NCBI GenBank assembly: GCA_042091515.1
Contig: JBELHH010000002.1
Coordinates: 62,450 to 126,449, forward strand
DNA from: Flavobacterium sp.
GTDB lineage: Bacteria; Bacteroidota; Bacteroidia; Flavobacteriales; Flavobacteriaceae
Length of the DNA: 64,000 nt
Reading direction: 5' to 3'
Shown in pieces: positions 7,928 to 40,263 of the stretch (position 1 is the first letter of the stretch; each line of letters starts with the position of its first letter). The translations under genes were made by a program, and so were the position numbers. The notes beneath the pieces are model-generated. The model searched no databases. It worked only from the letters and a program-made list of their open reading frames with translations, and was not told the DNA's origin.

Positions 7928-7964
7928 TATTTACAGATTCTTTATTTTTAAAGAATGACACATA

Positions 7965-9191: not shown

Positions 9192-9192
9192 A

Positions 9193-22463: not shown

Positions 22464-23471
22464 ATGAGAAAGATTTTAGTAACAGGTGGATTAGGGTATA
22501 TTGGATCTCATACGGTAGTAGAGTTACAAAATGCCGGATTTAAAGTTATTATTATTGACAATTTAAGTAATTCTAGAATTGAAGTTTTAGATAAAATCGT
22601 TTCCATAACTGGAATACGACCAGAATTTCATAATCTAGACCTAAGAAATAAAAAAGCAATTCAATTGTTTTTTAAAAATAATTCTGTAGAGGGTATCATT
22701 CACTTTGCAGCTTCAAAAGCTGTGGGCGAAAGCATTAAAAATCCTTTATTATACTACGAAAATAATATTAACACGTTAGTACATCTCCTACAAGAGATGG
22801 AAAAGCACAATCTAACAAACTTAATTTTCAGTTCTTCTTGTACTGTTTATGGCCAAGCAGATGAGTTACCAATTACAGAAAATTCCCCTGTAAGACCAGC
22901 GGAATCTCCTTATGGAAATACAAAAAAAATAGGAGAGGAGATAATTAATGATCGTTGTAATATTTCTGATTTAAGAGCGATAGCACTCCGTTATTTTAAT
23001 CCAATAGGAGCGCACGAAAGTGCTAAGATTGGAGAATTACCACTTGGTGTTCCACAAAATTTGATTCCTTTTATTACTCAAACTGCTGCAGGAATTAGAA
23101 AAGAATTATCTGTTTTTGGTGATGATTTTCCAACAAAAGATGGAACCGCTATACGAGACTTTATTCATGTTGTAGATTTAGCAAAATCTCATATTACTGC
23201 ATTAGAAAGATTACTTAATGATAACCATAAAAAAGATTTTGAAGTTTTTAATATAGGAACTGGTAAAGGAAATTCTGTGTATGAAGTCATCAAGGCTTTT
23301 GAAAAAATCTCTAACACAACACTAAATTACAAAATAGTTGGAAGACGAGAAGGCGATATTACAGCAGCCTATGCAGACACCACATTAGCAAACAAAGTAT
23401 TAAGATGGAGCGCTAAAAAAACATTAGAAGAAGCTCTATTATCTGCTTGGAAGTGGCAACAGAAACAGTAA
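22464..23471 (+). CDS. galE: UDP-glucose 4-epimerase
   Basis: Motifs GGLGYIGSH and the catalytic YGNTK; 335 aa. Confidence 0.9.
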   Translation: MRKILVTGGLGYIGSHTVVELQNAGFKVIIIDNLSNSRIEVLDKIVSITGIRPEFHNLDLRNKKAIQLFFKNNSVEGIIHFAASKAVGESIKNPLLYYENNINTLVHLLQEMEKHNLTNLIFSSSCTVYGQADELPITENSPVRPAESPYGNTKKIGEEIINDRCNISDLRAIALRYFNPIGAHESAKIGELPLGVPQNLIPFITQTAAGIRKELSVFGDDFPTKDGTAIRDFIHVVDLAKSHITALERLLNDNHKKDFEVFNIGTGKGNSVYEVIKAFEKISNTTLNYKIVGRREGDITAAYADTTLANKVLRWSAKKTLEEALLSAWKWQQKQ

Positions 23472-23475
23472 CTAT

Positions 23476-24363
23476 TTATTCCTCAAAATTTGCACCACTC
23501 GCGATAACACTTCTATCTATTTTACGCATCAGACCTTGTAAAACTTTTCCTGGCCCTACTTCAATAAATTCTGTTCCTCCATCTGCAATCATTGCCTGAA
23601 TTGATTGTGTCCATTTTACCGGAGCTGTGAGTTGTTTAATGAGGTTCTCCTTAATTTCATTGGCTGTATACACCGCTTTTGCCGGAACATTTTGATACAC
23701 TGGATAGGTAGGCTCATTAAAATGTGTTGTCTCAATTGCAGCTGCTAGTTCTTCTCTTGCTGGCTCCATCATTGGCGAATGAAAGCCTCCTCCTACTGGT
23801 AAAACCAAAGCTCTTCTTGCTCCCTTTTTGAGCAATACCTCACAGGCTTCTTCAATAGCAGAAACCTCTCCAGAGATAACTAATTGACCAGGACAATTAT
23901 AATTTGCTGCCACAACAACTCCATTTATATCATTACAAACTTGCTCTACTATTTTATCGTCTAGCCCTAAAACAGCAGCCATTGTAGAGGGCTTAATTTC
24001 ACAAGCTTTCTGCATCGCTATTGCTCGTTTGGAAACCAAATTTAATCCATCTTCAAAAGATAAAACTTCCGCTGCTACCAATGCTGAAATTTCGCCCAAA
24101 GAATGCCCTGCAACCATTTCTGGCATAAAATTATCACCAAGAACTTTTGCTAAAATAACCGAATGTAAAAAAATTGCAGGTTGCGTAACACGTGTTTGTT
24201 TTAATTCGTCAGCAGCCCCTTCAAACATAATGTCTGTTATACTAAATCCTAAAACTTCATTTGCTTTTTCAAAAAGTTCTTGTGCTAAAGGTGAGTTTTC
24301 GTATAGGTCTAAACCCATTCCTGAAAACTGTGCTCCTTGACCTGGAAAAATATATGCTTTCAT
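23476..24363 (-). CDS. fabD: Malonyl-CoA:ACP transacylase
   Basis: FPGQGAQ motif and active-site GHSLGE. Confidence 0.95.
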   Translation of the reverse strand: MKAYIFPGQGAQFSGMGLDLYENSPLAQELFEKANEVLGFSITDIMFEGAADELKQTRVTQPAIFLHSVILAKVLGDNFMPEMVAGHSLGEISALVAAEVLSFEDGLNLVSKRAIAMQKACEIKPSTMAAVLGLDDKIVEQVCNDINGVVVAANYNCPGQLVISGEVSAIEEACEVLLKKGARRALVLPVGGGFHSPMMEPAREELAAAIETTHFNEPTYPVYQNVPAKAVYTANEIKENLIKQLTAPVKWTQSIQAMIADGGTEFIEVGPGKVLQGLMRKIDRSVIASGANFEE

Positions 24364-24497
24364 TTGATTTTAGTTTCATTAATTTAACCACAAAAATAAG
24401 GATTTCTTATCTCATTAAAAGACTTTTAAAAAGAACTAAATAAATCGCTTCTTTCTCTTATGTTTGTATTAAGAAATTATTAGTAATTTCGTTGCAC

Positions 24498-25199
24498 ATG
24501 AAAGCTGAAAAAAAATCTCAAGCACAAATAATTTACCTCATCTTAGCAGCACTTTTTATTGCTTCATTAGTAACTTCCAATTTAATTTTTCAAAAATTTT
24601 TCTATTGGTATCCATTCGATAGTGAAATCTTTGGAGTAAAGCTGTTTGAAATTTCTGTTGGATTATTACCCTATCCAATCACTTTTTTAATTACAGACAT
24701 TCTCTCTGAGATTTATGGGAAAAAGAAAGCAAATCATGTTGTTATTGCTGGAATTTTTGCCTCTGTCTTTTCTCTAGGTATTATTTATGTTTCTAAGGTA
24801 GTCCCAGCAACATCTTGGTCTATTGTTGATGATAGTAATTTTATTCTAGTTTTTGGCTCAGCTCCATTGGCAGTTATGGCCTCTATGTTTGCCTATTTAT
24901 TTGCCCAATTTATCGACATTAGAGTCTATCACTTTTGGAAAAATTTAACAAAAGGCAAACACCTTTGGTTACGAAATAATTTTTCTACATTTTCTTCACA
25001 AATTATAGATACGCTTAGTGTGCTGTTATTATTATGCACTTTTAATATTATACAATGGGATAAATTTCTAGGCTTATTAATTAGTGGAGTACTCTTTAAA
25101 ATAATGATTGCCGCCCTTGATACTCCTATTTTGTATGCCATAGTGTTTTTCTTCAGAAGGCATTTTAATTTAAAAATGGGGGAAGAAATAAAAATATAA
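24498..25199 (+). CDS. yhhQ: Queuosine-precursor transporter (YhhQ/VUT family)
   Basis: Polytopic membrane protein with YPITFLITDILSEIYG. The start is set at the ATG at 24498. Confidence 0.8.
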   Translation: MKAEKKSQAQIIYLILAALFIASLVTSNLIFQKFFYWYPFDSEIFGVKLFEISVGLLPYPITFLITDILSEIYGKKKANHVVIAGIFASVFSLGIIYVSKVVPATSWSIVDDSNFILVFGSAPLAVMASMFAYLFAQFIDIRVYHFWKNLTKGKHLWLRNNFSTFSSQIIDTLSVLLLLCTFNIIQWDKFLGLLISGVLFKIMIAALDTPILYAIVFFFRRHFNLKMGEEIKI

Positions 25200-25268
25200 A
25201 CTCCTTTTAGTATCCATGTAAACTATTTAGAATGGTTTCGTCTAAAAGAATACGAAACAGTAGAAAAT

Positions 25269-25976
25269 ATGAAAAGCCTACCAATTTTTATACTATTATT
25301 GAGCTATATAACGATTCAATCACAAACTTCAGAATATGATACATTACTTTATAATAATGTTGATATTAAAGGAAACGTTGACTATAAATCCCTAAAAATA
25401 AACCCTACTATTTTAGATAATTTTCTACTATATTTAAATGACACATCCCCAAAAAAAGACTGGTCATCTGATAAAGAAAAAGCTTTTTGGATTAATGCCT
25501 ATAATGCATACACTCTTAAAATTGTAACAACCAACTATCCAATAAAGAGTATTACCAATATTAAAGTTGATGGAAAGACAGCTTGGAAAACTCCATTTGT
25601 AAAAGTTGGTGGTAAAACATATACATTAGATCAAATTGAACATGAAATTTTAAGGAAAAAATTTAAAGACCCAAGAATTCATGTTGGAGTTAATTGTGCT
25701 TCAATATCTTGTCCTAAATTATCAAACAAAGCATTCACCGAAAACAATATAGAAAGTGAATTAGAACATTTAATGACCGATTTTATAAATGATCCAACAA
25801 AAAATAATATCGGTGAAAAAAAATTAGTACTTTCCGAAATATTTAATTGGTTTAAGGCTGACTTTACATCAAGTGGATCATTAATTGATTACATCAATAA
25901 ATATTCTAAAGTAACAGTTGACAAAAAGCTAAAAATAAAATTCCTACCTTACAATTGGAGTTTAAACGAAAAGTAA
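25269..25976 (+). CDS. Secreted DUF547-like protein
   Basis: Signal peptide MKSLPIFILLLSYITIQSQ. The WINAYNAYT and HVGVNCASISCP motifs are ones I associate with DUF547. Confidence 0.6.
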   Translation: MKSLPIFILLLSYITIQSQTSEYDTLLYNNVDIKGNVDYKSLKINPTILDNFLLYLNDTSPKKDWSSDKEKAFWINAYNAYTLKIVTTNYPIKSITNIKVDGKTAWKTPFVKVGGKTYTLDQIEHEILRKKFKDPRIHVGVNCASISCPKLSNKAFTENNIESELEHLMTDFINDPTKNNIGEKKLVLSEIFNWFKADFTSSGSLIDYINKYSKVTVDKKLKIKFLPYNWSLNEK

Positions 25977-26016
25977 AACACACGGTCAATTTTAATTGAT
26001 ATTTAATCTTAAAAGT

Positions 26017-26352
26017 ATGTCTAAAACATATTATGATCCAGCAGACCTTCGTAAGTTTGGTGCTATCACAGAATGGAATGAAGAACTAGGAAATAGGTTC
26101 TTTGAGTATTATGAAAAAGTTTTTGAGGAAGGGGCATTATCAGCTAGAGAAAAATCATTAATTGCTTTAGCGGTTGCTCACACAGAACAATGCCCATATT
26201 GTATTGATGCGTATACAAAAGATGGATTACAACGCGGAATTACTAAAGAAGAAATGATGGAGGCTGTTCATGTTGGTGCTGCCATTAAAAGTGGAGCCAC
26301 CTTAGTCCATGGAGTTCAAATGATGAACAAGGTCAATAAATTGGAAATGTAG
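26017..26352 (+). CDS. AhpD/carboxymuconolactone-decarboxylase-like, arsenosugar-associated peroxidase-like protein
   Basis: 112 aa with CxxC in HTEQCPYCIDAY. It ends 1 nt before arsS. The start is set at the ATG at 26017. Confidence 0.75.
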   Translation: MSKTYYDPADLRKFGAITEWNEELGNRFFEYYEKVFEEGALSAREKSLIALAVAHTEQCPYCIDAYTKDGLQRGITKEEMMEAVHVGAAIKSGATLVHGVQMMNKVNKLEM

Positions 26353-26353
26353 T

Positions 26354-27409
26354 ATGAGTAAGAAATCTCTTTTAGCAAGAAAAAACACACTCGCTAATTC
26401 AGAAAAACAATTAGAAATTTTATCTAATGGTATTTTTGCTAATGGTGAATTACCCACGTTTGAACAAAAAATCAAAGAGACCAATCAGTTTCCACTTCGT
26501 CCAAAAAAATTAGAAATTTTACAAATCAATCTTGGGTATATGTGTAATCAAGTATGTGCTCATTGTCATGTAGACGCGGGTCCAGACAGAAAAGAAATCA
26601 TGACCATTGAAACCATGCAACTATGTTTAGACGTTATCAAAAACACTGGAGCACATACGTTAGATCTAACTGGTGGTGCCCCGGAGATGAATCCGAATTT
26701 CAGATGGTTTGTAGAAGAAGCTTCAAAAATAGGAATCAAAGATTTTATTGTAAGATCTAACTTAACCATCATTAGAGCCAATAAAAAATACAATGATTTA
26801 CCAGAATTTTTCAAAAAATACAATATTCACGTTATAAGCTCGATGCCCCACTGGACAAAAGGGAAAACAGACAAACAACGTGGAAATGGAGTTTTTGACA
26901 AATCGATTAAAGCCTTGCAGCAATTAAATGATATTGGATATGGAGTTTCAGGAAGTGGTTTACGTTTAGATTTAGTTTATAATCCCTCAGGAGCATTTTT
27001 ACCAGGAGATCAAATGGCGCTAGAAACATCATTTAAAAAAACGTTAAGAGACGAGTTCAATATCCAATTTCATCATTTATTTACCATTACCAATTTACCA
27101 ATTAGCCGTTTTTTAGATTATTTAATCGCTTCAGAAAATTACGAAGATTATATGCATGCATTGGTAGAAGCTTACAACTCTGTAACTTTACCTAATGTAA
27201 TGTGCACTAATACGCTTTCTGTTAGCTGGGACGGGTGGTTGTATGACTGTGATTTTAATCAAATGCTTAATCTAAAAGTAGCCAGTAAAGTAACACACAT
27301 CTCAAAATACAGGGAAGATATTTTACAAAAAAGAAATATCATTATTGGTCAACACTGCTATGGCTGTACAGCAGGATCAGGAAGTAGTTGTCAAGGAACA
27401 GTCGTCTAA
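26354..27409 (+). CDS. arsS: Radical SAM / Cys-rich-tail enzyme, arsenosugar biosynthesis ArsS type
   Basis: Radical-SAM motif CNQVCAHC and C-terminal HCYGCTAGSGSSCQG tail, adjacent to an ArsM-like methyltransferase. Confidence 0.8.
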   Translation: MSKKSLLARKNTLANSEKQLEILSNGIFANGELPTFEQKIKETNQFPLRPKKLEILQINLGYMCNQVCAHCHVDAGPDRKEIMTIETMQLCLDVIKNTGAHTLDLTGGAPEMNPNFRWFVEEASKIGIKDFIVRSNLTIIRANKKYNDLPEFFKKYNIHVISSMPHWTKGKTDKQRGNGVFDKSIKALQQLNDIGYGVSGSGLRLDLVYNPSGAFLPGDQMALETSFKKTLRDEFNIQFHHLFTITNLPISRFLDYLIASENYEDYMHALVEAYNSVTLPNVMCTNTLSVSWDGWLYDCDFNQMLNLKVASKVTHISKYREDILQKRNIIIGQHCYGCTAGSGSSCQGTVV

Positions 27410-27422
27410 TCAAAATAAAAAA

Positions 27423-28391
27423 ATGAGTTATTTAGAAACCACAAAAAATGTATATAAAAAAGCGGCGTTAACACCAGATATTGGTTTATGCTGCACCACA
27501 AATCCTATTTGGGAATTACCGGGTCTAAAAATTCCGAAAATTATGCAAGAAATGAATTATGGATGTGGTTCTACAGTTCATGCTAGAGATTTAACCAATA
27601 ATCCAACTATGCTTTATGTTGGAGTGGGTGGGGGTATGGAATTATTACAGTTTTCTTATTTCAATCGTACAAAAGGAGGTGTGATTGGATTAGATGTTGT
27701 CGATGAAATGCTAGAAGCTTCTCTTAAAAACTTTGTAGAAGCAGAAAAAATGAATCCTTGGTTTAAAAGTAACTTTATAGACCTACGAAAAGGAGATGCT
27801 TTACACCTACCTGTAAAAGATAATTCAATTGATGTTGCTGCTCAGAATTGTTTATTTAATATTTTTAAATCTGATGACTTAACAAAAGCAGTTTCAGAAA
27901 TGTATCGAGTACTTAAACCTCATGGTCGTTTGGTAATGAGTGATCCAACATGCGAACAAGAGATGAATGATGAATTAAGAAATGATGAACGTCTACGGGC
28001 CCTCTGCCTCAGTGGAAGTTTATCCATATCTGATTACGTAAAAACATTAACTGATGCTGGATTTGGAACCATAGAAATCAGAGCTCGAAAACCCTACAGA
28101 ATATTAGATCCAAAAAATTACCCAACAGATAAAATCATCTATATAGAATCTATTGAAATTGCCGCTATTAAAGATCCAATGCCAAAAGATGGTCCTTGTA
28201 TTTTTACTGGAAAAGCAGCTATTTATTTTGGAAAAGAAGATTATTTTGATGATCAGGCTGGACATATATTACTTAAAAATCAACCCTTAGCCATTTGTGA
28301 TAAGACAGCCAATTCTTTAAATTCTTTAAAAAGAAATGATATTTTTATTTCACCGTCTACCTATCATTATGATGGGGGAGGATGCTGTTAA
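27423..28391 (+). CDS. arsM: SAM-dependent arsenite methyltransferase-like protein
   Basis: SAM motif I LYVGVGGG plus conserved-type cysteines (GLCC, NYGCG, QNCLFN). The start is set at the ATG at 27423; the track start overlaps arsS. Confidence 0.75.
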   Translation: MSYLETTKNVYKKAALTPDIGLCCTTNPIWELPGLKIPKIMQEMNYGCGSTVHARDLTNNPTMLYVGVGGGMELLQFSYFNRTKGGVIGLDVVDEMLEASLKNFVEAEKMNPWFKSNFIDLRKGDALHLPVKDNSIDVAAQNCLFNIFKSDDLTKAVSEMYRVLKPHGRLVMSDPTCEQEMNDELRNDERLRALCLSGSLSISDYVKTLTDAGFGTIEIRARKPYRILDPKNYPTDKIIYIESIEIAAIKDPMPKDGPCIFTGKAAIYFGKEDYFDDQAGHILLKNQPLAICDKTANSLNSLKRNDIFISPSTYHYDGGGCC

Positions 28392-28424
28392 ATAAATATC
28401 ACTTAGATTTTTTCACTGTGAAAT

Positions 28425-29033
28425 ATGACACAAAAAAGTAATAATTTATTATTAGTCTTTATCAAAAATCCAGAATTAGGAAAGGTGAAAACACGCTTAG
28501 CAAAAAGTATTGGTCATAATACTGCTTTAAAAATATATCATTATTTACTTCTTAGAACTCACCATATTACAAATCAAGTTTCTTGTCATAAAGCAGTGTA
28601 TTATTCTGATAAAATAATTGAAAAAGATCTATGGGATGTAAACTCTTATTTAAAGTATTTACAAAAAGGAGATGATTTAGGAATTAGAATGTTAAATGCT
28701 TTTAAGAACAGTTTTGAGACTGGTTATAAAAAAGTTATCGTGATAGGATCAGATCTATACGACTTAACGCCTCAGATCATAGAAGAGGCTTTTTTAAGTT
28801 TAAATACGAATGATTTTGTAATCGGTCCTGCAAAAGATGGTGGGTATTATCTGTTAGGGATGAAGAAACTTCAAACAACTATTTTTAAAAATAAAGCTTG
28901 GGGTACCTCTACCGTAAAAAAAGATACTTTAAATGACATCACAAATAAAAAAGTACATTTGTTAAAGGAACTAAATGACATAGATATCTTAGAAGATATT
29001 TCTCATCACCCAGCTTTTCAACATTTTCTATAG
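28425..29033 (+). CDS. DUF2064 / TIGR04282-like (CofC/MobA-fold) transferase
   Basis: Motifs GKVKTRL, DLGIRM, IGSDLYDL and GPAKDGGYYLLG. Confidence 0.75.
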   Translation: MTQKSNNLLLVFIKNPELGKVKTRLAKSIGHNTALKIYHYLLLRTHHITNQVSCHKAVYYSDKIIEKDLWDVNSYLKYLQKGDDLGIRMLNAFKNSFETGYKKVIVIGSDLYDLTPQIIEEAFLSLNTNDFVIGPAKDGGYYLLGMKKLQTTIFKNKAWGTSTVKKDTLNDITNKKVHLLKELNDIDILEDISHHPAFQHFL

Positions 29034-29038
29034 ATCGT

Positions 29039-29854
29039 ATGAAACAACAATATTTAAAAGAAACCATTGATTATTTAAAGAAAAATGGAGTTGAGAAACC
29101 CACTGTTGGAATTGTCTTAGGAACAGGCTTAGGGTCTCTCATAAATGAAATAGCCATAGAAATAGAAATCGATTATAAAGAGATTCCTCATTTCCCTCTG
29201 GCAACCGTTGAGTTTCACTCTGGGAAAATTATTTACGGAACCCTTTCTGGCAAAAAAGTAATTGTTATGTCTGGTCGTTTTCATTTATATGAAGGATATT
29301 CTCCTTGGGAAGTCACTTATGGGATTAGAACCATGCATGGTTTAGGAATTAGTAATTTACTAATCTCTAATGCTTCTGGAGCGATTAATCTAACCTACAA
29401 AAAAGGAGATCTTATGCTGCTTGAAGATCACATAAATTTACAAGGGAGTTCACCTATTGCTTTTAAAGGGGCTAATACTTTTGGTGCTATTTTTGTGGAT
29501 ATGTTAGCACCTTATTCTAAAGATTTAAATACGTGTATTAAACAAATTGCAATGGCATTAAAAATAAAACTTCATACAGGAGTATATGCAGGTGTTCTAG
29601 GGCCACAATTAGAAACAAGAGCGGAATATAGAATGTTACAAATTCTAGAAGCAGATGCTGTAGGAATGAGTACCGTTCCGGAAGTTATTGTTGCCAAGCA
29701 ACTCAACGTGCCTTGTGCGGCTATTTCTGTTCTAACGGATGAATGTGATCCAAAAAATTTAAAGCCTGTAAATATTCCTGACATCATAGAAGTTGCCGGA
29801 AAAGCTGAACCAAAAATGATTAAACTCTTTAAAAAAACTATTGAGATTTTATAG
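29039..29854 (+). CDS. Purine nucleoside phosphorylase (trimeric PNP/MTAP family)
   Basis: Motifs GRFHLYEGY, GPQLETRAE and MSTVPEV. Confidence 0.9.
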   Translation: MKQQYLKETIDYLKKNGVEKPTVGIVLGTGLGSLINEIAIEIEIDYKEIPHFPLATVEFHSGKIIYGTLSGKKVIVMSGRFHLYEGYSPWEVTYGIRTMHGLGISNLLISNASGAINLTYKKGDLMLLEDHINLQGSSPIAFKGANTFGAIFVDMLAPYSKDLNTCIKQIAMALKIKLHTGVYAGVLGPQLETRAEYRMLQILEADAVGMSTVPEVIVAKQLNVPCAAISVLTDECDPKNLKPVNIPDIIEVAGKAEPKMIKLFKKTIEIL

Positions 29855-29868
29855 AAAGTTTATTAATA

Positions 29869-30657
29869 CTATTCTGGTTCTACCTCCATTAACATAACTG
29901 TTTTAAACTCAATTGGGTGAGTCTCAGATTGTAATGAAATATACCCTTCTGAAATAGGTGTCCCAGGAGGTAAAAGATAATTTTCTGGAAGATAATCGCC
30001 CCCTATTTGAGGTTTAGAATAAGAAATAACCGTATCTCCTTCTATAATATGGTGCATAATTTCATCTCCTAGAACAACAAATTCAGCAGTTACCCAATCA
30101 TCACTATGGTAGGTTTTAGAGGTTGAATTAATACAATGCCTTTTTTCTAATTTATCATTTATTACTACATGTAATCCTGGTGTACATAGGTTTCCATTTG
30201 CCCGTTTATCGGTTCCATTACCTCCTAATAATTGACCTTCTAAACTTACAGGAAATTCTTGATCTAAGCCCATACTTTGTGGAGACTGACAGTGCATCAT
30301 AACACCATTGTTTCGATAAGCCCAATTCCCTACTTCAGGAAATGCCTGCTCTCCTACAAAGCGATATTCAACGACTATCTTATAGTGAGAAAATGATTGT
30401 TTATAAAATAAATGACCATATCTATTCTCGAACTTTTCATATCCATCATACGATACTTTTAATAAACCATTTTCTACTCTGAACGTATTTTTATAATTAT
30501 CTCCAAGCTTATGACCGGTAATTTTAGGAATCCATCCTTCTAAATTTTCTCCATTAAATAGTTGAATCCATTGTCCTTTTTGGTTTTTTTTAGACTGATA
30601 TTGACAGCTCGTTAATATCAAGCATAAAAAAAATAACTGTAAAAAATACTTTCTCAT
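29869..30657 (-). CDS. DUF1080 (3-keto-disaccharide hydrolase-like) lipoprotein
   Basis: Lipobox LILTSC. The motifs W..LFNG..L.GW, FRVENG.L and LQSE..PIEFK are typical of DUF1080. Confidence 0.7.
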   Translation of the reverse strand: MRKYFLQLFFLCLILTSCQYQSKKNQKGQWIQLFNGENLEGWIPKITGHKLGDNYKNTFRVENGLLKVSYDGYEKFENRYGHLFYKQSFSHYKIVVEYRFVGEQAFPEVGNWAYRNNGVMMHCQSPQSMGLDQEFPVSLEGQLLGGNGTDKRANGNLCTPGLHVVINDKLEKRHCINSTSKTYHSDDWVTAEFVVLGDEIMHHIIEGDTVISYSKPQIGGDYLPENYLLPPGTPISEGYISLQSETHPIEFKTVMLMEVEPE

Positions 30658-30910
30658 ATTTTAGAAAACTTGGTTCATCGAATTAGTATCCCAAGATAAT
30701 ACAAATTTAAAAAATAAAAACTTTTGGTTAAGACAGCTTTTGATGAGTAAATAGGTTTTCATCCCGACCCTAAAAGAGAAGATTCAAAAAATTAAATAAT
30801 AATCTCACAAGATTATTAGTAAATCAAGTATTGGTTTTTGCATGAAAATTACTGAATTTAACAAAAAGAAGGTATTTTTGCAGTACCTATAAAAAACTTG
30901 TTATATTAAT

Positions 30911-31798
30911 ATGAATAAATATATAGACATTATAAAAAATTCTTATGTTGACTATTGGAACTATCTTCAAAAATCTGTTCTAATGGAACTCAACTGGGAA
31001 AATTATTTTTATGGTATTATTATTATATCAGTAGTAGTATGGTGTTTAGAGATTATTTTCCCATGGCGAAAGAATCAATCTATTATTAGAAAAGACTTTT
31101 GGTTAGACATATTTTATATGTTTTTTAATTTCTTTTTATTAAACTTAATTGTTCTCATTGCATTATCTAACGCTGCAGCAATTTTTTTTAATGATGTGTT
31201 ATCTTTAGTTGGTTTATCTATTAGTAATCTTCAAGTTTTTAATATTAATTCGTTCCCTTATTGGTTGAGAATATTGGTGTTTTTTGTAGTAATTGATTTT
31301 GTACAATGGTTTACTCACACTCTATTACATCGATATAGTTTTTTATGGAACTTTCACAAAGTACATCATTCGGTGAAACAAATGGGCTTTGCTGCTCATC
31401 TACGCTATCATTGGATGGAGCCTGTAATATACAATTCTATAAAGTATATTCCGTTAGCTATATTAGGTGGTTTTAACGCTCAAGATGTTGCTATCGTTCA
31501 CTTTTTTAACATCTCTATAGGACATTTAAATCATGCCAATATTAATTGGGATTATGGATTTTTAAAATATATTTTTAACAACCCTAAAATGCATATTTGG
31601 CATCATGCCAAAGAACTTCCAAAGGAAAAAAATAACGGTGTGAATTTCGCAATTACACTAAGTATTTGGGATTATTTATTTAAGACTAATTATATACCAT
31701 ATTCTGGAAGAGATATCGAGTTAGGTTTTGAAAATGATAATCTATTTCCTTCTTCATTTATTAAACAAGAAATGTACCCTTTTGGTAAAAAAGATTAA
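30911..31798 (+). CDS. Fatty acid hydroxylase / sterol desaturase-family membrane protein
   Basis: His boxes HTLLHR, HKVHH and HIWHH, plus TM segments. Confidence 0.8.
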   Translation: MNKYIDIIKNSYVDYWNYLQKSVLMELNWENYFYGIIIISVVVWCLEIIFPWRKNQSIIRKDFWLDIFYMFFNFFLLNLIVLIALSNAAAIFFNDVLSLVGLSISNLQVFNINSFPYWLRILVFFVVIDFVQWFTHTLLHRYSFLWNFHKVHHSVKQMGFAAHLRYHWMEPVIYNSIKYIPLAILGGFNAQDVAIVHFFNISIGHLNHANINWDYGFLKYIFNNPKMHIWHHAKELPKEKNNGVNFAITLSIWDYLFKTNYIPYSGRDIELGFENDNLFPSSFIKQEMYPFGKKD

Positions 31799-31847
31799 TC
31801 TTCATTTTTTAATACGGGTATTATTAATTAACCATTTAAGATAAGCA

Positions 31848-32576
31848 TTACTTATTTCTCCCTTTTTCATTAGGATATAAGTCAGGTAGTCGATCACTTT
31901 GATATATTTCTTTTGTATCAATATTAATGGCTGTAATTTTCCCTTTAAAAGCTGCTCCAGTATCTATATTCCAAACATTGAAAGCATTCATAGGTTCCGA
32001 TAAACCATAGTTGGTTGTAGGAGTATGTCCTATATAAATTTCTTTATAATGGTTTAATCTTTTTGGATATGTGTTCATTTGTGGTTTTAACGAGGGATCC
32101 ATCGCGATTGCCATTTCCCATAAAGTTCTGTCTTCACAAAGTGTATGGATAGACGTTTCTTTTAGTACCCCATGCATTGAAGTAAAGCCTGCATGTAAAA
32201 ATAATTTATTCTCATTGTTTATATAATACATTTTAGTCTTGTTAAAAAAGGCTAAATGATCCTTTTTATCTAAATTCGAATAATTATCATAACTCTCTAT
32301 TGTTTCTTTACCTCCATGCCTATACCAAGAAGGATCTACTTCATTATTTTTTAACCAATTTTCACACAATACATCATGATTTCCTTTAATAAAAGTACAA
32401 TTAATTTTTTTTGACAACTCTATTAAAAAATCAATTACTTGGGCAGAATCACTCCAACCATCAACATAATCTCCCATAAAAATCAAGCAGTCTTCCTCAT
32501 TAATGGCAAGCTTATTTATAACTTGTATTAACGCTTTTAGACCGCCATGTATATCTCCAATCGCAAAAGTTTTCAT
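31848..32576 (-). CDS. Metallophosphoesterase (PPP-type phosphatase)
   Basis: Motifs GDIHGG, GDYVDG and GNHD. Confidence 0.85.
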   Translation of the reverse strand: MKTFAIGDIHGGLKALIQVINKLAINEEDCLIFMGDYVDGWSDSAQVIDFLIELSKKINCTFIKGNHDVLCENWLKNNEVDPSWYRHGGKETIESYDNYSNLDKKDHLAFFNKTKMYYINNENKLFLHAGFTSMHGVLKETSIHTLCEDRTLWEMAIAMDPSLKPQMNTYPKRLNHYKEIYIGHTPTTNYGLSEPMNAFNVWNIDTGAAFKGKITAINIDTKEIYQSDRLPDLYPNEKGRNK

Positions 32577-32694
32577 TGTTTTTGAATAAATAGGTAAAGT
32601 TATGGGATTAGAATTTCATTTTGGTCTGAAAACGTTAAATTTACAATAAGAATTTTATTGATCCTTTTTCTTAATAATTCTTACTAGGAAGAAA

Positions 32695-33975
32695 CTAAAA
32701 ATACTGTCCTATCCCAAAGACAAATCCTTGTGTTCCATTGTTGGTAATACCATAGCCATAATCTATTCTAAATACTGCATTATAAATTTTCCTATGAATA
32801 AATCGCAGCCCTAGTCCAGGGTATATTCTTACATTATTAGGATCGAAAAAATCATCAATATCACCTCCAGGGTTTCTCCAAGTACCTGCATCAACAAACG
32901 CATTACCTTGAATTGTTATATTATTTTTTTTATAGAGAATATATCTGTATTCTGTATTTAAGACAACAACGCCAGTTCCTCGATCAATAATATTTCCAAC
33001 ACCTCTAATATTAACATTATTATCTACTGAAAAAGGGGCAAAAGGAGAATCAGCATTCGTGGCAAAACCAATCCGTACTTTATTAGCCCAATTTCCATTT
33101 TTACCAATCCGTTTAAAATAGAAAAAATCGTTCCACCAAATAGAAAAGTCAGGAAATGTAGTACCAAATGCTATTACATGTTGAAAGTTGAACAAAGTTC
33201 TAAAACCCGAAATACTCTCATAATAATAGTCTAATGCATTATATTCATATATTAATTTGAACAACGACTTATCTATTGTTAATGCTTGTGGGATCTCTGG
33301 ATTTATAGCTCCTGATTTATATTGATATTTTTCTGTAAAAAAAGTAAATCCTAGTTGTATTTTATTTCTCAATGATAATTGATGGAGCCCTAATAGTTCA
33401 TAGGATCTATTATTGTATTTATAATCTGATGATGTATCATCAAAAAAAACAGGCTCTTGAGTTGTTAAATTCTGATAATTAAAAGCCAATCCAAAGGTAT
33501 TTCCAAAGGTATTTCCAAATAAAAATGGAGCATTAAAATTGATCGCATAAGAATCATAAATATCTCGTTGGAAAAATCCACCAATAGAAATATTCTTTCC
33601 TAGAAAATTAAATTCATTCACCCCTATTCTATACGCAAATTCATTGTTATTTGTTGTGTGAAAATTTGCAAAAGGAATAATGGTAAAATTCTCTTCAATA
33701 GTAATCGTAATGTTATAGTGTTTTATATATGATTCAAAGACACGGAAATAAGCATGAGAGATCGATGGCAATCTTTTTAATAAAGCAATATCCTTGTCTA
33801 GTTGAACAGAATCCAATCCTTGTCCTACTTTGGTAGTAATGATTTTTTTAACAAAAGAAACTTTCATTTTTTTAGTTCCTAGAATCTTTATATCATTGAC
33901 AATATGGTTCTGACTAAATGAGATAATTGAGTAGAATAAAAAAAGAGGGAGAATATTTTTTTTATAAAAGATCAT
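32695..33975 (-). CDS. Omp85/BamA-type outer membrane protein with a single POTRA-like domain
   Basis: Signal peptide, a POTRA-like N-terminus (IKILGTKKMKVSFVKKII...) and a beta-strand-rich body ending in GIGQYF, with the aromatic C-terminus typical of OMPs. Confidence 0.65.
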   Translation of the reverse strand: MIFYKKNILPLFLFYSIISFSQNHIVNDIKILGTKKMKVSFVKKIITTKVGQGLDSVQLDKDIALLKRLPSISHAYFRVFESYIKHYNITITIEENFTIIPFANFHTTNNNEFAYRIGVNEFNFLGKNISIGGFFQRDIYDSYAINFNAPFLFGNTFGNTFGLAFNYQNLTTQEPVFFDDTSSDYKYNNRSYELLGLHQLSLRNKIQLGFTFFTEKYQYKSGAINPEIPQALTIDKSLFKLIYEYNALDYYYESISGFRTLFNFQHVIAFGTTFPDFSIWWNDFFYFKRIGKNGNWANKVRIGFATNADSPFAPFSVDNNVNIRGVGNIIDRGTGVVVLNTEYRYILYKKNNITIQGNAFVDAGTWRNPGGDIDDFFDPNNVRIYPGLGLRFIHRKIYNAVFRIDYGYGITNNGTQGFVFGIGQYF

Positions 33976-36111: not shown

Positions 36112-37461
36112 ATGGAACATATCGTTATCATTGGAAATGGTATTTCAGGAGTTACACTTGCTAGACATATTCGAAAAAATTCAGCTAAAGAAATTACCAT
36201 TGTTTCAGCAGAAACCGATTATTTCTTCTCACGTACAGCACTAATGTATGTATACATGGGGCATTTGAAGTTTGAACATACTCAGCCCTACGAATCTTGG
36301 TTCTGGGAGAAGAATCGCATTCATTTAAAAAAAGGATATGTAACTAAAATTGACATTGCAAAAAAGGAACTCATCTTTTCAAATAAAGAAAGCCTTTCTT
36401 ATGATAAATTAGTGTTAGCAACTGGCTCAAAACCAAACAAATTTGGTTGGCCAGGACAAGAGTTAAAAGGTGTAATGGGAATGTACCACAAGCAAGATTT
36501 AGAAAACCTAGAAAAACATGCCCCTAATAATACTGTCTGTAAAAGAGCCATTATTGTTGGAGGGGGGTTGATAGGTATAGAACTGGCTGAAATGTTGCAT
36601 TCTAGAGATATTCCTGTTACTTTTTTAGTTCGTGAAAAAAGTTTTTGGAGTGGCGTTTTGCCTAATGGAGAAAGCGAAATGATTACCAGACATATACTAA
36701 ATAATCATATCGATTTACGATTAAATACTAATTTAAAAGAAATAAAATCTGATAAAAGCGGCCATGTGAAATCTGTAATTGTTGAAGAAACAGGAGAAGA
36801 AATTTTATGTGATATTGTGGGGTTAACCGCTGGTGTTTCTCCAAATATAGATGTTGTAAAAAACGCTATGATAGAAACAAATCGTGGAGTATTAGTAAAT
36901 CGCTTTTTAGAAACAAACATTGAGGATATATATGCTATTGGTGATTGTGCAGAACAAAGAGAAGCTATTGGCAATAGAAGAGCAATAGAAGCTGTCTGGT
37001 ATACTGGAAGAATGATGGGAGAAACTTTAGCACAAACTATTTGTGGAAATAAAATTAAATACACACCAGGACATTGGTTTAATTCAGCAAAATTTTTTGA
37101 TATAGAATATCAAACTTATGGATGGGTTTTTAATGAAAACATAAGGCCTCAATACGAAAAACATTTTCACTGGAAACACAAAGATGACAACAAGTGTATT
37201 ACTATTGCTTACCATAAAGATTCAAATCTTTTCTTAGGAATTAATACATTTGGAATAAGGATGCGTCATGAGATTTTTGACAAATGGCTCACGGAGAAAA
37301 GAGATGTCCATTATATCTTACAATATTTAAGTGATGCCAATTTTGATCCAGAATTTTATACACTTTATGAGAAAGAAATCATAAAAAAATTTAATCAAGA
37401 AAACAACACTTCTATTCAATCAAAAAGAAAAAGTTGGAAACGAATATTCACCAGAGCCTAA
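36112..37461 (+). CDS. NAD(P)/FAD-dependent pyridine nucleotide-disulfide-type oxidoreductase
   Basis: Two dinucleotide-binding motifs, VIIGNGISG and IIVGGGLIGIELA, plus a GD motif (AIGDCAE). Confidence 0.85.
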   Translation: MEHIVIIGNGISGVTLARHIRKNSAKEITIVSAETDYFFSRTALMYVYMGHLKFEHTQPYESWFWEKNRIHLKKGYVTKIDIAKKELIFSNKESLSYDKLVLATGSKPNKFGWPGQELKGVMGMYHKQDLENLEKHAPNNTVCKRAIIVGGGLIGIELAEMLHSRDIPVTFLVREKSFWSGVLPNGESEMITRHILNNHIDLRLNTNLKEIKSDKSGHVKSVIVEETGEEILCDIVGLTAGVSPNIDVVKNAMIETNRGVLVNRFLETNIEDIYAIGDCAEQREAIGNRRAIEAVWYTGRMMGETLAQTICGNKIKYTPGHWFNSAKFFDIEYQTYGWVFNENIRPQYEKHFHWKHKDDNKCITIAYHKDSNLFLGINTFGIRMRHEIFDKWLTEKRDVHYILQYLSDANFDPEFYTLYEKEIIKKFNQENNTSIQSKRKSWKRIFTRA

Positions 37462-37466
37462 AACTT

Positions 37467-39089
37467 ATGAAAATACTACAACAACTGGGGTTTATAATTT
37501 TTTTAACCGGACTCACTCTTTTTACAGCAACTATTTTTACCGGTTCCTTTACTCTAACCCCTTTAGAAATAGAAAATTTCATCGCTCAAAAAGGGTATAA
37601 AAATGAACGAATCAAAGATGAACTTTTAAAAGCTACTCAGACAGATAAAAACCTCAATATTTTTGAATTCTCAACGCGTGTTCGCTCTGCTTTTAAAGCA
37701 TCAAATGATTATTACGATCATTTAATTGCTACCTATGACGCCGAAAAAAAATGGGATAAAAAAGGAGCTCAATATCAATTTAAAATTTATGAAAAACCAC
37801 ATACCTTCAGTTACGAACTTGCCAAAAAAGCAGGCGATGGCATCCTCAAAGAAAATATAGGAATTACATGGTTTTTAACCTTTGGTTTAGGGATTATCGG
37901 AGCCTTACTTTTTATTCTTCCAAATCTAATTATACTGGGAAAACCCGGAATAAAAAATAATGGCATTTATTTAGAGTCGAGTACAAATCGTGGTTTAATT
38001 GCTTGGTTGGTATTAATTTACTTGGTTTCATTTTACTTGGTCTTGTACTTTATGCCTGATTATGTAGTCAACTGGACATATATTCTTGATCCTATTAGTA
38101 TATTTTTAAATGGCGGGGAAGCCAGTCAATGGTTTGTTTATGGATTTTTATATTGTGTTGTGATGCTTGTTATGGGGGTGCGAATGTATATTAAATACAG
38201 GCATAATAAATATCAAATTATACGAACAACGTCTGTTCTATTTTTTCAGATTGTTTTTGCATTCTTACTTCCTGAAATAATGACCAGTTTAAATATGCCT
38301 GGTTATGATTTCAAAAATGCTTTTCCTTTAGATTATGATTTCTTTTTTGATTGGAATTTAGATCAATTAAGAAATAGTGGCAGTATAGGGTTGTTTATTC
38401 TTGTTTGGGGAATTGTATTAACACTTATTATCGTACCAGTGATGGTGTATTTCTTTGGAAAAAGATGGTATTGCTCTTGGGTTTGTGGTTGTGGAGGGCT
38501 AGCCGAAACATTAGGAGACCCTTACAGACAACACGCTGACAAAAGTCTGAATGCATGGAAATTAGAGCGATGGTTGATTCATTCAGTATTATTATTTTCT
38601 TTAATTATGACAATAGTCACCTTGTATTGTTATTTTTCAGGAACACAAAGTTTACTAGGAATACAATCTCAGTGGATCAAAGACACTTATAGTTTTTTAA
38701 TTGGAGCTTGGTTTGCAGGTGTTATTGGTACTGGTTTTTATCCCATTTTTGGAAACAGAGTATGGTGTCGTTTTGGATGTCCACTAGCTGCATATCTCGG
38801 GCTCGTTCAGCGATTTAAATCTAGGTTTAGAATAACTACTAATGGTGGGCAGTGCATCTCTTGTGGAAATTGTTCTACCTATTGTGAGCAAGGAATCGAT
38901 GTTAGAGCTTATGCACAAAAAGGAGAAAATATTGTTCGTTCTAGCTGTGTTGGTTGCGGTATTTGCTCGGCAGTATGTCCAAGGGGCGTTTTAAAATTAG
39001 AAAATGGTCCAGAAGAAGGACGGATTAATCCTACTGAGATATTGTTAGGAAATAATATAGATTTAATTGAGTTGATTAATAAAAAATAA
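37467..39089 (+). CDS. Polytopic membrane 4Fe-4S protein (NapH/CcoG-like polyferredoxin)
   Basis: CSWVCGCGG and CRFGCPLAA motifs, plus two ferredoxin motifs: CISCGNCSTYC (38853-38885) and CVGCGICSAVCP (38946-38978). The start is set at the ATG at 37467. Confidence 0.8.
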   Translation: MKILQQLGFIIFLTGLTLFTATIFTGSFTLTPLEIENFIAQKGYKNERIKDELLKATQTDKNLNIFEFSTRVRSAFKASNDYYDHLIATYDAEKKWDKKGAQYQFKIYEKPHTFSYELAKKAGDGILKENIGITWFLTFGLGIIGALLFILPNLIILGKPGIKNNGIYLESSTNRGLIAWLVLIYLVSFYLVLYFMPDYVVNWTYILDPISIFLNGGEASQWFVYGFLYCVVMLVMGVRMYIKYRHNKYQIIRTTSVLFFQIVFAFLLPEIMTSLNMPGYDFKNAFPLDYDFFFDWNLDQLRNSGSIGLFILVWGIVLTLIIVPVMVYFFGKRWYCSWVCGCGGLAETLGDPYRQHADKSLNAWKLERWLIHSVLLFSLIMTIVTLYCYFSGTQSLLGIQSQWIKDTYSFLIGAWFAGVIGTGFYPIFGNRVWCRFGCPLAAYLGLVQRFKSRFRITTNGGQCISCGNCSTYCEQGIDVRAYAQKGENIVRSSCVGCGICSAVCPRGVLKLENGPEEGRINPTEILLGNNIDLIELINKK

Positions 39090-39565
39090 TGGGTGTAAAG
39101 TTTAATCTAATCCTGTCATTTCTTCTAATATATACTGTTGGAGTTTGTCAAAAAAAATATCAAAAGGATTACTTTAATAATGGGAATTTAAAAGCAGAGG
39201 GATGGATTAAAGACTCAAAAAAACATGGATACTGGATCTTTTATTATCCAAATGGAAATAAAAAAAAAGAAGGTCACTTTAAAAACAATATCACTATTAA
39301 ATATTGGTATTTTTACCGACAAGACGGATCAAAAGAAAAAGAAGGTCACTATCACAATGATCAACAACATAAATGGTGGTTATATTTCGATACTTTTGGA
39401 AATGTGAATCATAAATGTCAATTAAATAAGAATCAAAAAAACGGGTACTGTCTAATTTATAAAAAAAATAAATTGATTAAAGCGTCAAAATATCATAACG
39501 ATAAAAAAATCAAAGAATGGACCAGTGTCTCTTCTTTTAAAAGAGAGAATAAGCGACCCAATTAA
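39089..39565 (+). CDS. MORN-repeat-variant (YwqK-like) lipoprotein
   Basis: Lipobox TVGVC and repeated G.W..YY.NG.KK.EG.. units. Its ATG overlaps the previous TAA. Confidence 0.7.
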   Translation: MGVKFNLILSFLLIYTVGVCQKKYQKDYFNNGNLKAEGWIKDSKKHGYWIFYYPNGNKKKEGHFKNNITIKYWYFYRQDGSKEKEGHYHNDQQHKWWLYFDTFGNVNHKCQLNKNQKNGYCLIYKKNKLIKASKYHNDKKIKEWTSVSSFKRENKRPN

Positions 39566-39567
39566 AA

Positions 39568-40263
39568 ATGGTAACACAAAATATTAAAGTAATCATCCCT
39601 GCGTTTAACGAAGAAGATTCCATAACTAAGGTGATCACTGACATCCCTAAAATAGTGAATGAAATTATTGTTGTTAATAATAATTCCTCAGATAATACCG
39701 AAAATAACGCTTTGAAAGCAGGGGCTACTGTATTAACTGAAAAAAGAAAAGGATACGGATATGCTTGTTTAAAAGGAATGGATTATATCGCTCAACAAGA
39801 AGGCAGTCCGGATATTATTGTTTTTTTAGATGGAGATTATTCAGATTACCCAGAACAGTTACTCGAAATTATTAACCCAATACTAACAAAGAAGATCGAT
39901 TTTGTAATCGGTGCTAGAGTTAAAAAACTTAGAGAATTAGGTTCCATGACTCCGCAACAGATTTTTGGAAATTGGCTCGCTACTTTCCTAATGGCTCTTT
40001 TTTTTAAGGCAACCTTTACCGATTTAGGGCCCTTCAGAGCTATCAAATATGAAAAGCTTTTAGCATTAAAAATGCAAGATAAAACGTATGGATGGACTGT
40101 AGAAATGCAGTTAAAAGTTCTAAAACAAGGAATCACTTATGTTGAAATTCCTGTTAAGTATAGAAACAGGATTGGGGTTTCTAAGGTGTCAGGAACCCTA
40201 AAAGGCTCTATCATGGCTGGTATAAAAATTTTAGGTTGGATTTTTAAATACAGTTTTAAGTAA
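39568..40263 (+). CDS. GT2 glycosyltransferase, polyprenyl-phosphate sugar synthase (Dpm1/ArnC)-like
   Basis: Motifs IIPAFNEED, NSSDNT and LDGDYSD; 231 aa. Confidence 0.85.
   Translation: MVTQNIKVIIPAFNEEDSITKVITDIPKIVNEIIVVNNNSSDNTENNALKAGATVLTEKRKGYGYACLKGMDYIAQQEGSPDIIVFLDGDYSDYPEQLLEIINPILTKKIDFVIGARVKKLRELGSMTPQQIFGNWLATFLMALFFKATFTDLGPFRAIKYEKLLALKMQDKTYGWTVEMQLKVLKQGITYVEIPVKYRNRIGVSKVSGTLKGSIMAGIKILGWIFKYSFK

Follow-up and report, generated by a model that had tools for sequence, protein, structure and literature searches.

In marine food webs, arsenosugars are the main organoarsenicals, and to our knowledge enzymes have been assigned only for the first steps of their synthesis: ArsM, which methylates As(III) to dimethylarsenite, and ArsS, whose product, DDMAA (5'-deoxy-5'-dimethylarsinoyl-adenosine), carries the 5'-deoxyadenosyl group of S-adenosylmethionine (SAM) on dimethylarsenite. 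Which enzyme then removes adenine from DDMAA is the question raised by a gene cluster of Flavobacterium sp., located at positions 25269-29854 of a 64 kb stretch of contig JBELHH010000002.1 (hereafter the window, i.e., the whole 64,000 nucleotides analysed, the numbering of which is used below). The ORF listing with translations shows six co-directional open reading frames (ORFs) here, all on the + strand, the last of which encodes a trimeric-type purine nucleoside phosphorylase (PNP):

25269-25976, + strand: DUF547 protein, 235 aa, PF04784
26017-26352, + strand: AhpD/CMD-fold CxxC peroxidase-like protein, 111 aa from ATG, TIGR04169
26354-27409, + strand: radical SAM enzyme ArsS, 351 aa, TIGR04167
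27423-28391, + strand: ArsM of the arsenosugar-cluster subtype, 322 aa from ATG, NF038099
28425-29033, + strand: DUF2064 protein, 202 aa, TIGR04282 / PF09837
29039-29854, + strand: trimeric-type PNP, 271 aa, NF006054

Judged from sequence, this PNP is a plausible candidate for the removal of adenine from DDMAA, a role to which we give about an even chance. The preceding reaction, adenosylation of dimethylarsenite to DDMAA by ArsS, is summarised in PMC13598754 and described in a 2026 ArsL preprint. In the literature searched on the late steps of arsenosugar synthesis, no enzyme is assigned to adenine removal or glycoside formation; of the adenine of DDMAA, a 2026 preprint states only that it 'can then be removed'. 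The inclusion of PNP in the cluster is the new part and appears to be undescribed in the searchable literature; no link of PNP to the arsenosugar set was found in the NCBIfam models or the literature searched.

Organization and gene content of the cluster

The six ORFs are separated, in order, by 40, 1, 13, 33 and 5 nt. An alternative TTG start at 25996 is also open for the AhpD-like gene, and one at 27345 would extend arsM into arsS. The starts taken are the ATGs at 26017 and 27423, because the profiles are then covered end to end, TIGR04169 at positions 1-109 of 109 and NF038099 at positions 1-321 of 321 by residues 2-322. The translations contain the motifs EQCPYC, CNQVCAHC, GCTAGSGSSCQG, GLCC, NYGCG, QNCLFN, GKVKTRL, GPAKDGGYYLLG, GRFHLYEGY and MSTVPEV. 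The six ORFs, their coordinates, strand and gaps and these motifs had been described in an earlier note on this DNA, and all were reproduced in the ORF list.

Between 24300 and 31900, promoter- and terminator-like sites occur in the numbers expected from shuffled sequence, in a scan whose coverage does not extend to Bacteroidota promoters. As these matches are at chance level, the operon reading is based on spacing and strand only. An Rfam scan of 23000-33000 returned no element, apart from a single sub-threshold chance match to a miRNA. This set of genes is met again in dozens of loci, far more often than chance would allow.

Families were assigned by profile search and judged against curated NCBIfam and Pfam cut-offs. 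The DUF547 ORF scores 96 bits with PF04784 (cut-off 27), and its N-terminus, MKSLPIFILLLSYITIQSQ, is a probable signal peptide, as judged by eye. The AhpD-like ORF, adjoining arsS with the gap of 1 nt, reaches 191.6 bits with TIGR04169 (cut-off 120) and also matches PF02627. ArsS scores 431.3 bits with TIGR04167 (cut-off 300), matches PF04055 and PF12345, and contains both the required CX3CX2C motif (CNQVCAHC) and the required Cys-rich C-terminal motif GCTAGxGSSC (GCTAGSGSSCQG). It is 83-86% identical to annotated ArsS proteins of Tenacibaculum, Lutibacter and Pseudotenacibaculum, with 85% for Tenacibaculum. The ArsM ORF scores 567 bits with NF038099 (AsSugarArsM, cut-off 400), its conserved cysteines being present, and the DUF2064 ORF scores 202.5 bits with TIGR04282 / PF09837 (cut-off 134). 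Identification of the block as an ArsM/ArsS operon with AhpD-like and DUF2064 proteins and a trimeric PNP, proposed earlier, thus stands, with all the profile cut-offs passed.

Four of the six ORFs (ArsS, ArsM and the TIGR04169 and TIGR04282 proteins) pass models that already bear the name 'arsenosugar biosynthesis'. The NCBIfam arsenosugar set comprises TIGR04167, NF038099, TIGR04169, TIGR04282 and TIGR04283; four of these five families are present in the window, whereas TIGR04283 is missing and PNP and DUF547 are added. The adjacency of the AhpD-like gene to arsS agrees with that in 51 of 80 diverse loci. The rhodanese of related clusters was likewise not found in the 64 kb window. By its predicted gene content, the block is a reduced variant of an arsenosugar-type operon of marine Flavobacteriaceae, and its end product is uncertain, because TIGR04283 and the cluster rhodanese are lacking. 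Tenacibaculum, Lutibacter, Polaribacter and their kin are marine genera, and since the closest relatives of both ArsS and PNP belong to them, the source organism is taken to be a marine member of the Flavobacteriaceae.

An operon of this composition is a known and already annotated kind. Its presence in a heterotroph had been considered unusual, which is not borne out: ArsS loci are common across heterotrophic phyla and occur in Acidobacteriota, Nitrospirota, Planctomycetota and Bacteroidota, and ArsS annotations for Tenacibaculum, Lutibacter and related flavobacteria already stand in public records. In genomic terms, a heterotroph with such an operon is nothing out of the ordinary. Likewise, the association of the DUF2064 protein with the pathway is confirmed by TIGR04282, but it is not new, as NCBIfam already names this family an arsenosugar biosynthesis glycosyltransferase.

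Two observations concern the ends of these genes. The ArsS homologues P0160, P0222, P0231 and P0233 end in '...CTAGSGSS', exactly where the window protein has Cys, which fits versions of the C-terminal motif with selenocysteine (UGA) that were cut off by gene callers. Upstream of the DUF547 start codon, TTCGTCTAAA is kept at a distance of 20-35 nt in three genera (window 25231-25258; L164:5084-5097; L002:8749-8762); the window copy is one arm of an inverted repeat of 7 bp (GTTTCGT...ACGAAAC). A conserved hairpin at this place was rejected, the second arm not being kept in Polaribacter or Lutibacter.

Linkage of the PNP gene to the cluster

The comparison comprised about 160 loci besides the window. 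For the arsS census, a query of 46 rows (44 diverse ArsS representatives, the window ArsS and the consensus, placed first) was used in a genome scan, which returned 80 loci from Acidobacteriota, Nitrospirota, Planctomycetota, Verrucomicrobiota, Bacteroidota and other phyla; the neighbours of arsS were found by tblastn with the six window proteins. Metagenomes were scanned for PNP with a consensus-first alignment of the PNP subfamily, which gave 80 loci, many of them on short contigs.

About 37 of the 80 metagenomic PNP loci are linked to the cluster, as are 18 of the 34 that have at least 3 kb on both sides. Among the 80 loci, genes near PNP encode DUF2064 (35 loci), ArsS (23), ArsM (23), a TIGR04283-type GT2 glycosyltransferase (20), DUF547 (20), rhodanese (18) and a hydroxylase (9). 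Where at least 800 bp of upstream sequence is present (64 loci), the gene directly upstream of PNP is DUF2064 in 24 cases, and the spacing between the two is 6-65 nt in most loci. The commonest full order in the PNP-centred loci is AhpD-ArsS-Rhod-DUF2064-PNP-ArsM-(FA hydroxylase)-DUF547-GT2, where Rhod denotes rhodanese and FA fatty acid. All three GT2s checked in related flavobacterial clusters pass TIGR04283, with 229-242 bits (cut-off 182).

The closest PNPs, 77-81% identical to that of the window, belong to Polaribacter and Tenacibaculum. The locus of Polaribacter SA4-10 is syntenic with the window and reads fabD(-), Vut_1, DUF547, AhpD, ArsS, ArsM, Rhod, DUF2064, PNP. In Tenacibaculum ovolyticum (DUF547-AhpD-ArsS-(141 aa)-Rhod-DUF2064-PNP-DoxX-ArsM) and in Lutibacter (DUF547-AhpD-ArsS-Rhod-DUF2064-DM13-PNP-ArsM), the PNP gene is flanked by cluster genes and does not stand at the edge. 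The cluster of Polaribacter haliotis (L163:1-9958) is interrupted by a SusC/SusD pair, a sodium:solute symporter and a Metallophos_2 gene, and contains two copies of DUF2064.

In a neighbour-joining tree of PNPs, one large clade, which includes the window protein, consists of essentially all linked copies. A second clade of linked copies (L060, L091, L095 and L133; Chryseolinea-like) has the order ArsS-PNP-DUF2064-GT2. PNP is linked in yet other arrangements in L021, L032, L085, L106 and L110, the order being PNP-AhpD-ArsS in L021, with divergent DUF2064 and PNP genes in L106 and L110. The upper clades of the tree, which include PDB 4lna and 4m1e, consist entirely of unlinked copies. The L085 locus (7564-10819) is a minimal unit of a LOG-family gene (PF03641), AhpD, ArsS and PNP, and neither an ArsM nor a DUF2064 gene lies within 10 kb; LOG proteins are nucleotide N-glycosidases.

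Within Bacteroidota, PNP adjoins arsS in at least five gene orders, which fall on separate branches of its tree. Encoded inside the cluster, beside the maker of a 5'-substituted adenosine, PNP is found in the marine flavobacterial clade of the window, most often immediately behind DUF2064, and in at least four other Bacteroidota arrangements. By our own estimate, a single-copy gene would lie within ~2 kb of arsS by chance in ~1 locus per 1000. The differing orders in separate branches point to repeated or maintained selection for proximity.

Family and active site of the PNP

The PNP ORF scores 318.3 bits with NF006054 (cut-off 218) and 267.5 bits with TIGR01697 (cut-off 197.1). It falls below the inosine/guanosine equivalog TIGR01700 (264.6 bits, cut-off 293.35) and far below the 5'-methylthioadenosine phosphorylase (MTAP) model TIGR01694 (98.4 bits, cut-off 274.85). 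Solved structures that it matches are 4lna (6e-82) and 4m1e (5e-66), which we take to be the PNPs of Spirosoma linguale and Planctomyces limnophilus, respectively.

The PNPs were aligned with human PNP and human MTAP, and the human numbering agrees with PMC4308819. The phosphate- and ribose-binding residues Arg84, His86, Tyr88, Met219, Ser220 and Glu201 are kept in the window PNP and in the whole subfamily. Relative to human PNP, the window protein has F200L, N243D, H257I and P160V. Throughout the subfamily, Phe200 is replaced by Leu (Val in one metagenomic copy), Asn243 by Asp, and His257 by Ile, Leu or Val, with Phe in one copy; human MTAP has Asp and Val in the columns equivalent to 243 and 257, and the substitution at 200 likewise agrees with MTAP. 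Thus, the window PNP has none of the marks of an inosine/guanosine-specific enzyme, namely the equivalog score, Asn243 and His257.

Human PNP with the substitutions Asn243Asp and Glu201Gln cleaves adenosine and its analogues (PMC2799393), and His257 of human PNP binds the 5'-OH (PMC4308819). Because Asn243 is replaced by Asp and position 257 is hydrophobic, the pocket appears suited to an adenine nucleoside without a 5'-OH, such as DDMAA. The pocket of the window PNP is, as predicted from these residues, MTAP-like and fits adenine together with a non-hydroxyl 5' group. The likeness to MTAP lies in the Asp that recognises the base and in a hydrophobic residue that takes the place of PNP His257. 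The substrates, known for MTAP and proposed for the window PNP, are adenine nucleosides whose 5' group is not a hydroxyl. Unlike MTAP, the window PNP is overall of the punA type and retains Glu201, in line with its score below TIGR01694.

One position is associated with linkage. The near-universal Pro after Phe159, Pro160 in the human enzyme, gives way to Val, Thr or Ala in 36 of the 43 linked PNPs and is replaced in only 6 of 43 unlinked ones, five of them on short contigs. Phe159 itself presumably reaches in from the neighbouring subunit to close the ribose pocket. The change of Pro160 tracks linkage, but since one clade dominates the linked set the comparison is phylogenetically confounded, so the change is a lead, not proof. 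4lna and 4m1e belong to the same subfamily as the window PNP and have F200L, N243D and H257L; they differ in keeping Pro160 and in grouping with the unlinked PNPs of housekeeping context. Around this position the window reads 'FGAIFVDML', and the Tenacibaculum/Polaribacter subclade changes RFPDMS to IF(A/V)DML. Catalytic residues specific to linked PNPs were also sought and rejected, the main positions being the same in linked and unlinked copies.

A pocket with Asp243 and a hydrophobic residue 257 would also suit 5'-deoxyadenosine or adenosine, and the cluster encodes two SAM-consuming enzymes. PNP might then serve to clear inhibitory by-products, removing 5'-deoxyadenosine released by uncoupled ArsS or adenosine originating from the S-adenosylhomocysteine of ArsM. 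We regard this function as decidedly improbable. The 5'-deoxyadenosyl group ends up in the product of ArsS, and little free 5'-deoxyadenosine is expected (PMC13598754). The PNP gene pairs with DUF2064 rather than with arsS or arsM, and in other phyla with the same SAM enzymes the surroundings of arsS show no enrichment of a nucleosidase or phosphorylase: MtnN, MTAP and LOG gave only isolated, non-adjacent matches there.

Proposed late pathway of arsenosugar synthesis

For adenine removal from DDMAA, the reading preferred here, the cluster PNP would phosphorolyse DDMAA to adenine and 5-deoxy-5-dimethylarsinoyl-alpha-D-ribose-1-phosphate, PNP-family enzymes yielding alpha-ribose-1-phosphate. The adjacent TIGR04282 protein would turn the arsenosugar-1-phosphate into a nucleotide-activated sugar, and in the fuller clusters the TIGR04283 glycosyltransferase would move the activated sugar onto an acceptor. 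TIGR04283 belongs to GT2, a family of inverting enzymes in CAZy; inversion starting from the alpha-phosphate would therefore give a beta-ribofuranoside, the configuration of natural arsenosugars. The beta-riboside configuration appears in the compound name in the title of PMC6656958. In the window variant, which has neither TIGR04283 nor rhodanese, another enzyme may finish the pathway, or the end product may be different.

This order of reactions has a precedent in fluorometabolite synthesis, where the cluster-encoded PNP FlB phosphorolyses SAM-derived 5'-fluoro-5'-deoxyadenosine to 5-fluoro-5-deoxyribose-1-phosphate (PMC7541441). The proposal shares with the fluorinase FlA and FlB a SAM-derived 5'-substituted 5'-deoxyadenosine from which adenine is removed by a PNP of the same cluster. 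The likeness is one of pathway logic: here the substituent is dimethylarsinoyl and is put on by a radical SAM enzyme, and the proposed fate of the sugar is glycoside formation, whereas the FlB pathway continues with isomerisation and aldol cleavage.

The DUF2064 protein is inferred to activate or transfer the arsenoribosyl unit. It has a nucleotidyltransferase-type fold like that of CofC/MobA, and its best match among solved structures is 3cgx, a 'putative nucleotide-diphospho-sugar transferase' (1e-25). It resembles CofC/FbiD and MobA in weak but significant profile matches (TIGR03552, 5.6e-6; PF01983, 22.5 bits against a cut-off of 22) and in the N-terminal motif KxxxGxVKTRL. It nevertheless lies far below the 105-bit cut-off for CofC, and NCBIfam calls TIGR04282 a glycosyltransferase, not a nucleotidyltransferase.

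A wider reading takes PNP, TIGR04282 and TIGR04283 together as the missing late pathway, and the PNP subfamily with F200L, N243D and H257(I/L) as a misannotated phosphorylase of adenosine and 5'-modified adenosines. This we put forward tentatively, with its chances somewhat short of even. On that view the subfamily, widespread in Bacteroidota and Planctomycetota, would be wrongly labelled inosine/guanosine PNP. Judged by its pocket residues, a large PNP subfamily now annotated plainly as purine-nucleoside phosphorylase probably has specificity for adenine and a 5'-deoxy group, which bears on the annotation of purine and SAM salvage in Bacteroidota. For the arsenosugar pathway, the result is an ordered and stereochemically consistent series of candidates, PNP, then TIGR04282, then TIGR04283, with culturable Tenacibaculum and Polaribacter as sources of the genes. 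Algae and cyanobacteria may not be the only producers of arsenoribosides: abundant heterotrophic marine flavobacteria may make them too, and if they do, the assignment of sources of marine organoarsenic would change.

Distribution and origin of the PNP gene

Among the neighbours of arsS, the census by tblastn found an AhpD-like gene in 51 of the 80 loci (directly upstream of arsS), arsM in 26, DUF2064 in 23, DUF547 in 7 and PNP in 5. The PNP match in L012, 8.4 kb from arsS and on the other strand, was disregarded for these reasons. The remaining four are adjacent and co-directional and belong to Chitinophagales (L021), Saprospiraceae (L029), Flavobacteriales (L032) and Chryseolinea (L060). In 21 of the 30 Bacteroidota loci and 31 of the 50 others, arsS is flanked on each side by 2.5 kb or more of sequence.

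A number of results weigh against a role of PNP in arsenosugar synthesis. In the genome census PNP is adjacent to arsS in only 4 of 30 Bacteroidota loci, and the gene of L029 is a fragment without any ORF of at least 90 aa; no adjacent PNP was found in the 50 arsS loci from other phyla. One flavobacterial clade dominates among the linked loci, for which reason locus counts overstate the number of independent events. The MTAP-like signature is common to the linked and to all unlinked members, 4lna and 4m1e included. Unlinked PNPs sit in core-genome contexts, with lpxK directly upstream in six loci and with yggS, divIVA, ileS and lspA also recurring nearby. The nearest unlinked relatives of the linked flavobacterial clade are found in Flavobacteriales/Urechidicola-like genomes. 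There PNP follows aroE, and the rhodanese and DUF2064 genes lie ~5 kb upstream (L165:2489-3607, L166:1134-2343), with no ArsS or ArsM gene within 8 kb in either locus; this suggests that the rhodanese-DUF2064 module can exist apart from the arsenic enzymes. In another Flavobacteriales metagenome-assembled genome, PNP is fully unlinked. As for the later steps, the best candidate for TIGR04283 in the 64 kb window, at 39568-40263, is AglJ-like and scores 34 bits (cut-off 182), and nucleotide activation of a ribofuranose-1-phosphate by the DUF2064 protein is pure conjecture.

The census called for in the earlier note thus places PNP beside arsS in several Bacteroidota lineages, and the adjacency is absent from 26 of 30 Bacteroidota loci and from all 50 others. 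The proposal of PNP as a pathway enzyme is likewise upheld in one part, as the gene is embedded in the clusters of Tenacibaculum, Lutibacter and Polaribacter, and qualified in another, as subfamily and signature are shared with copies in housekeeping contexts. Because of this shared subfamily and signature, PNP is viewed as a recruited housekeeping orthologue. It is best seen, from the sequence comparison, as the ordinary housekeeping-type orthologue of the lineage, relocated into the cluster in some lineages, and not as a dedicated paralogue.

An ordinary purine-salvage enzyme could also have been inherited at the end of an ars operon within one flavobacterial clade, with no role in arsenic metabolism. 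Several results agree with such passive inheritance: subfamily and catalytic residues shared with copies near lpxK, yggS, divIVA and ileS; a PNP tree in which linked and unlinked copies are interspersed, the pattern expected if each genome has one orthologue; the 76 of 80 diverse arsS loci without an adjacent PNP; and the 64 kb window, in which neither a second PNP nor an MTAP homologue was found. To see if PNP had moved away from the housekeeping neighbourhood where it usually lies, lpxK was also looked for, and the 64 kb window does not contain it. A passenger gene is nevertheless unlikely in our view, since PNP stands between cluster genes in many loci rather than at the edge, its adjacency recurs in at least five gene orders on separate branches of the PNP tree, its spacing from DUF2064 is tight (6-65 nt in most loci), and the Pro160 substitution correlates with linkage.

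Arsenolysis was also considered, in which PNP uses arsenate in place of phosphate and the resulting unstable ribose-1-arsenate is reduced by a thiol, e.g., that of the CxxC AhpD-like protein, feeding As(III) to ArsM. Gregus and Nemeti in 2002 and Radabaugh et al. in 2002 reportedly described arsenate reduction by mammalian PNP with dithiols. The six-ORF block encodes no ArsC, some arsS loci contain a PHO4-type phosphate transporter gene, and in vitro reduction of arsenate by mammalian PNP with dithiols is among the findings cited in PMC12608789. Even for mammals, however, its physiological relevance is doubted in the same source. PNP is moreover absent from many arsS/arsM loci of other phyla and is coupled to DUF2064 rather than to arsM, and arsenolysis leaves the changes in the base and 5' pockets unexplained. 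We consider it very improbable.

Other genes of the cluster and its surroundings

DUF547 genes stand co-directionally beside cluster genes in 9 of 83 arsS-centred and 20 of 80 PNP-centred loci; DUF547 is a recurrent, not universal, member of the arsS cluster. Further neighbours of arsS were recovered by unbiased clustering of the surrounding ORFs: a TIGR04283 or AglJ-like GT2 in 16 loci, a PHO4-family phosphate transporter in 8, a pyridine-nucleotide disulfide oxidoreductase in 7, a fatty-acid-hydroxylase-family protein in 6, including the window, and a rhodanese of NF045521 in 4. Rhodanese as an Acr2-type arsenate reductase was rejected: it has a six-residue loop of the rhodanese type (CSLGVR in L002), and it is absent from the window. 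The PHO4 gene adjoins arsS/arsM in Nitrospirota, Planctomycetota and Saprospiraceae (L014:8365-9504, L008, L009, L029, L074 and others) and is possibly a component of arsenate or phosphate uptake.

Downstream of the PNP gene, the window contains two genes of interest:

29869-30657, - strand: DUF1080 / 3-keto-disaccharide hydrolase-family gene, PF06439, between PNP and the hydroxylase gene
30911-31798, + strand: fatty-acid-hydroxylase-family membrane protein, PF04116 (91 bits), weakly OlsE-like

Homologues of the hydroxylase lie no more than 5 kb from arsS in six loci, from Pyrinomonadaceae, Pedobacter, Planctomycetaceae and the window among them; coordinates elsewhere are L163:10817-11701, L003:691-1560, L044:13889-14677 and L057:5026-5865. 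In Polaribacter haliotis, the gene begins ~1 nt after PNP. The hydroxylase may be an unrecognised accessory member of the cluster, possibly lipid-related. Polaribacter and Lutibacter have no DUF1080 gene at the corresponding place, and the window gene looks to have been inserted locally.

A second co-directional block of six ORFs is located at 36112-43105 of the window (+ strand). Its genes encode, in order, a pyridine-nucleotide disulfide oxidoreductase, a NapH-like ferredoxin protein, a 158-aa ORF, an AglJ-like GT2, a PgaC-like GT2 and a GT-C-like membrane protein. The first two are syntenic in Polaribacter (L164), and AglJ-like GT2 genes also neighbour arsS in Acidobacteriota and Planctomycetota.

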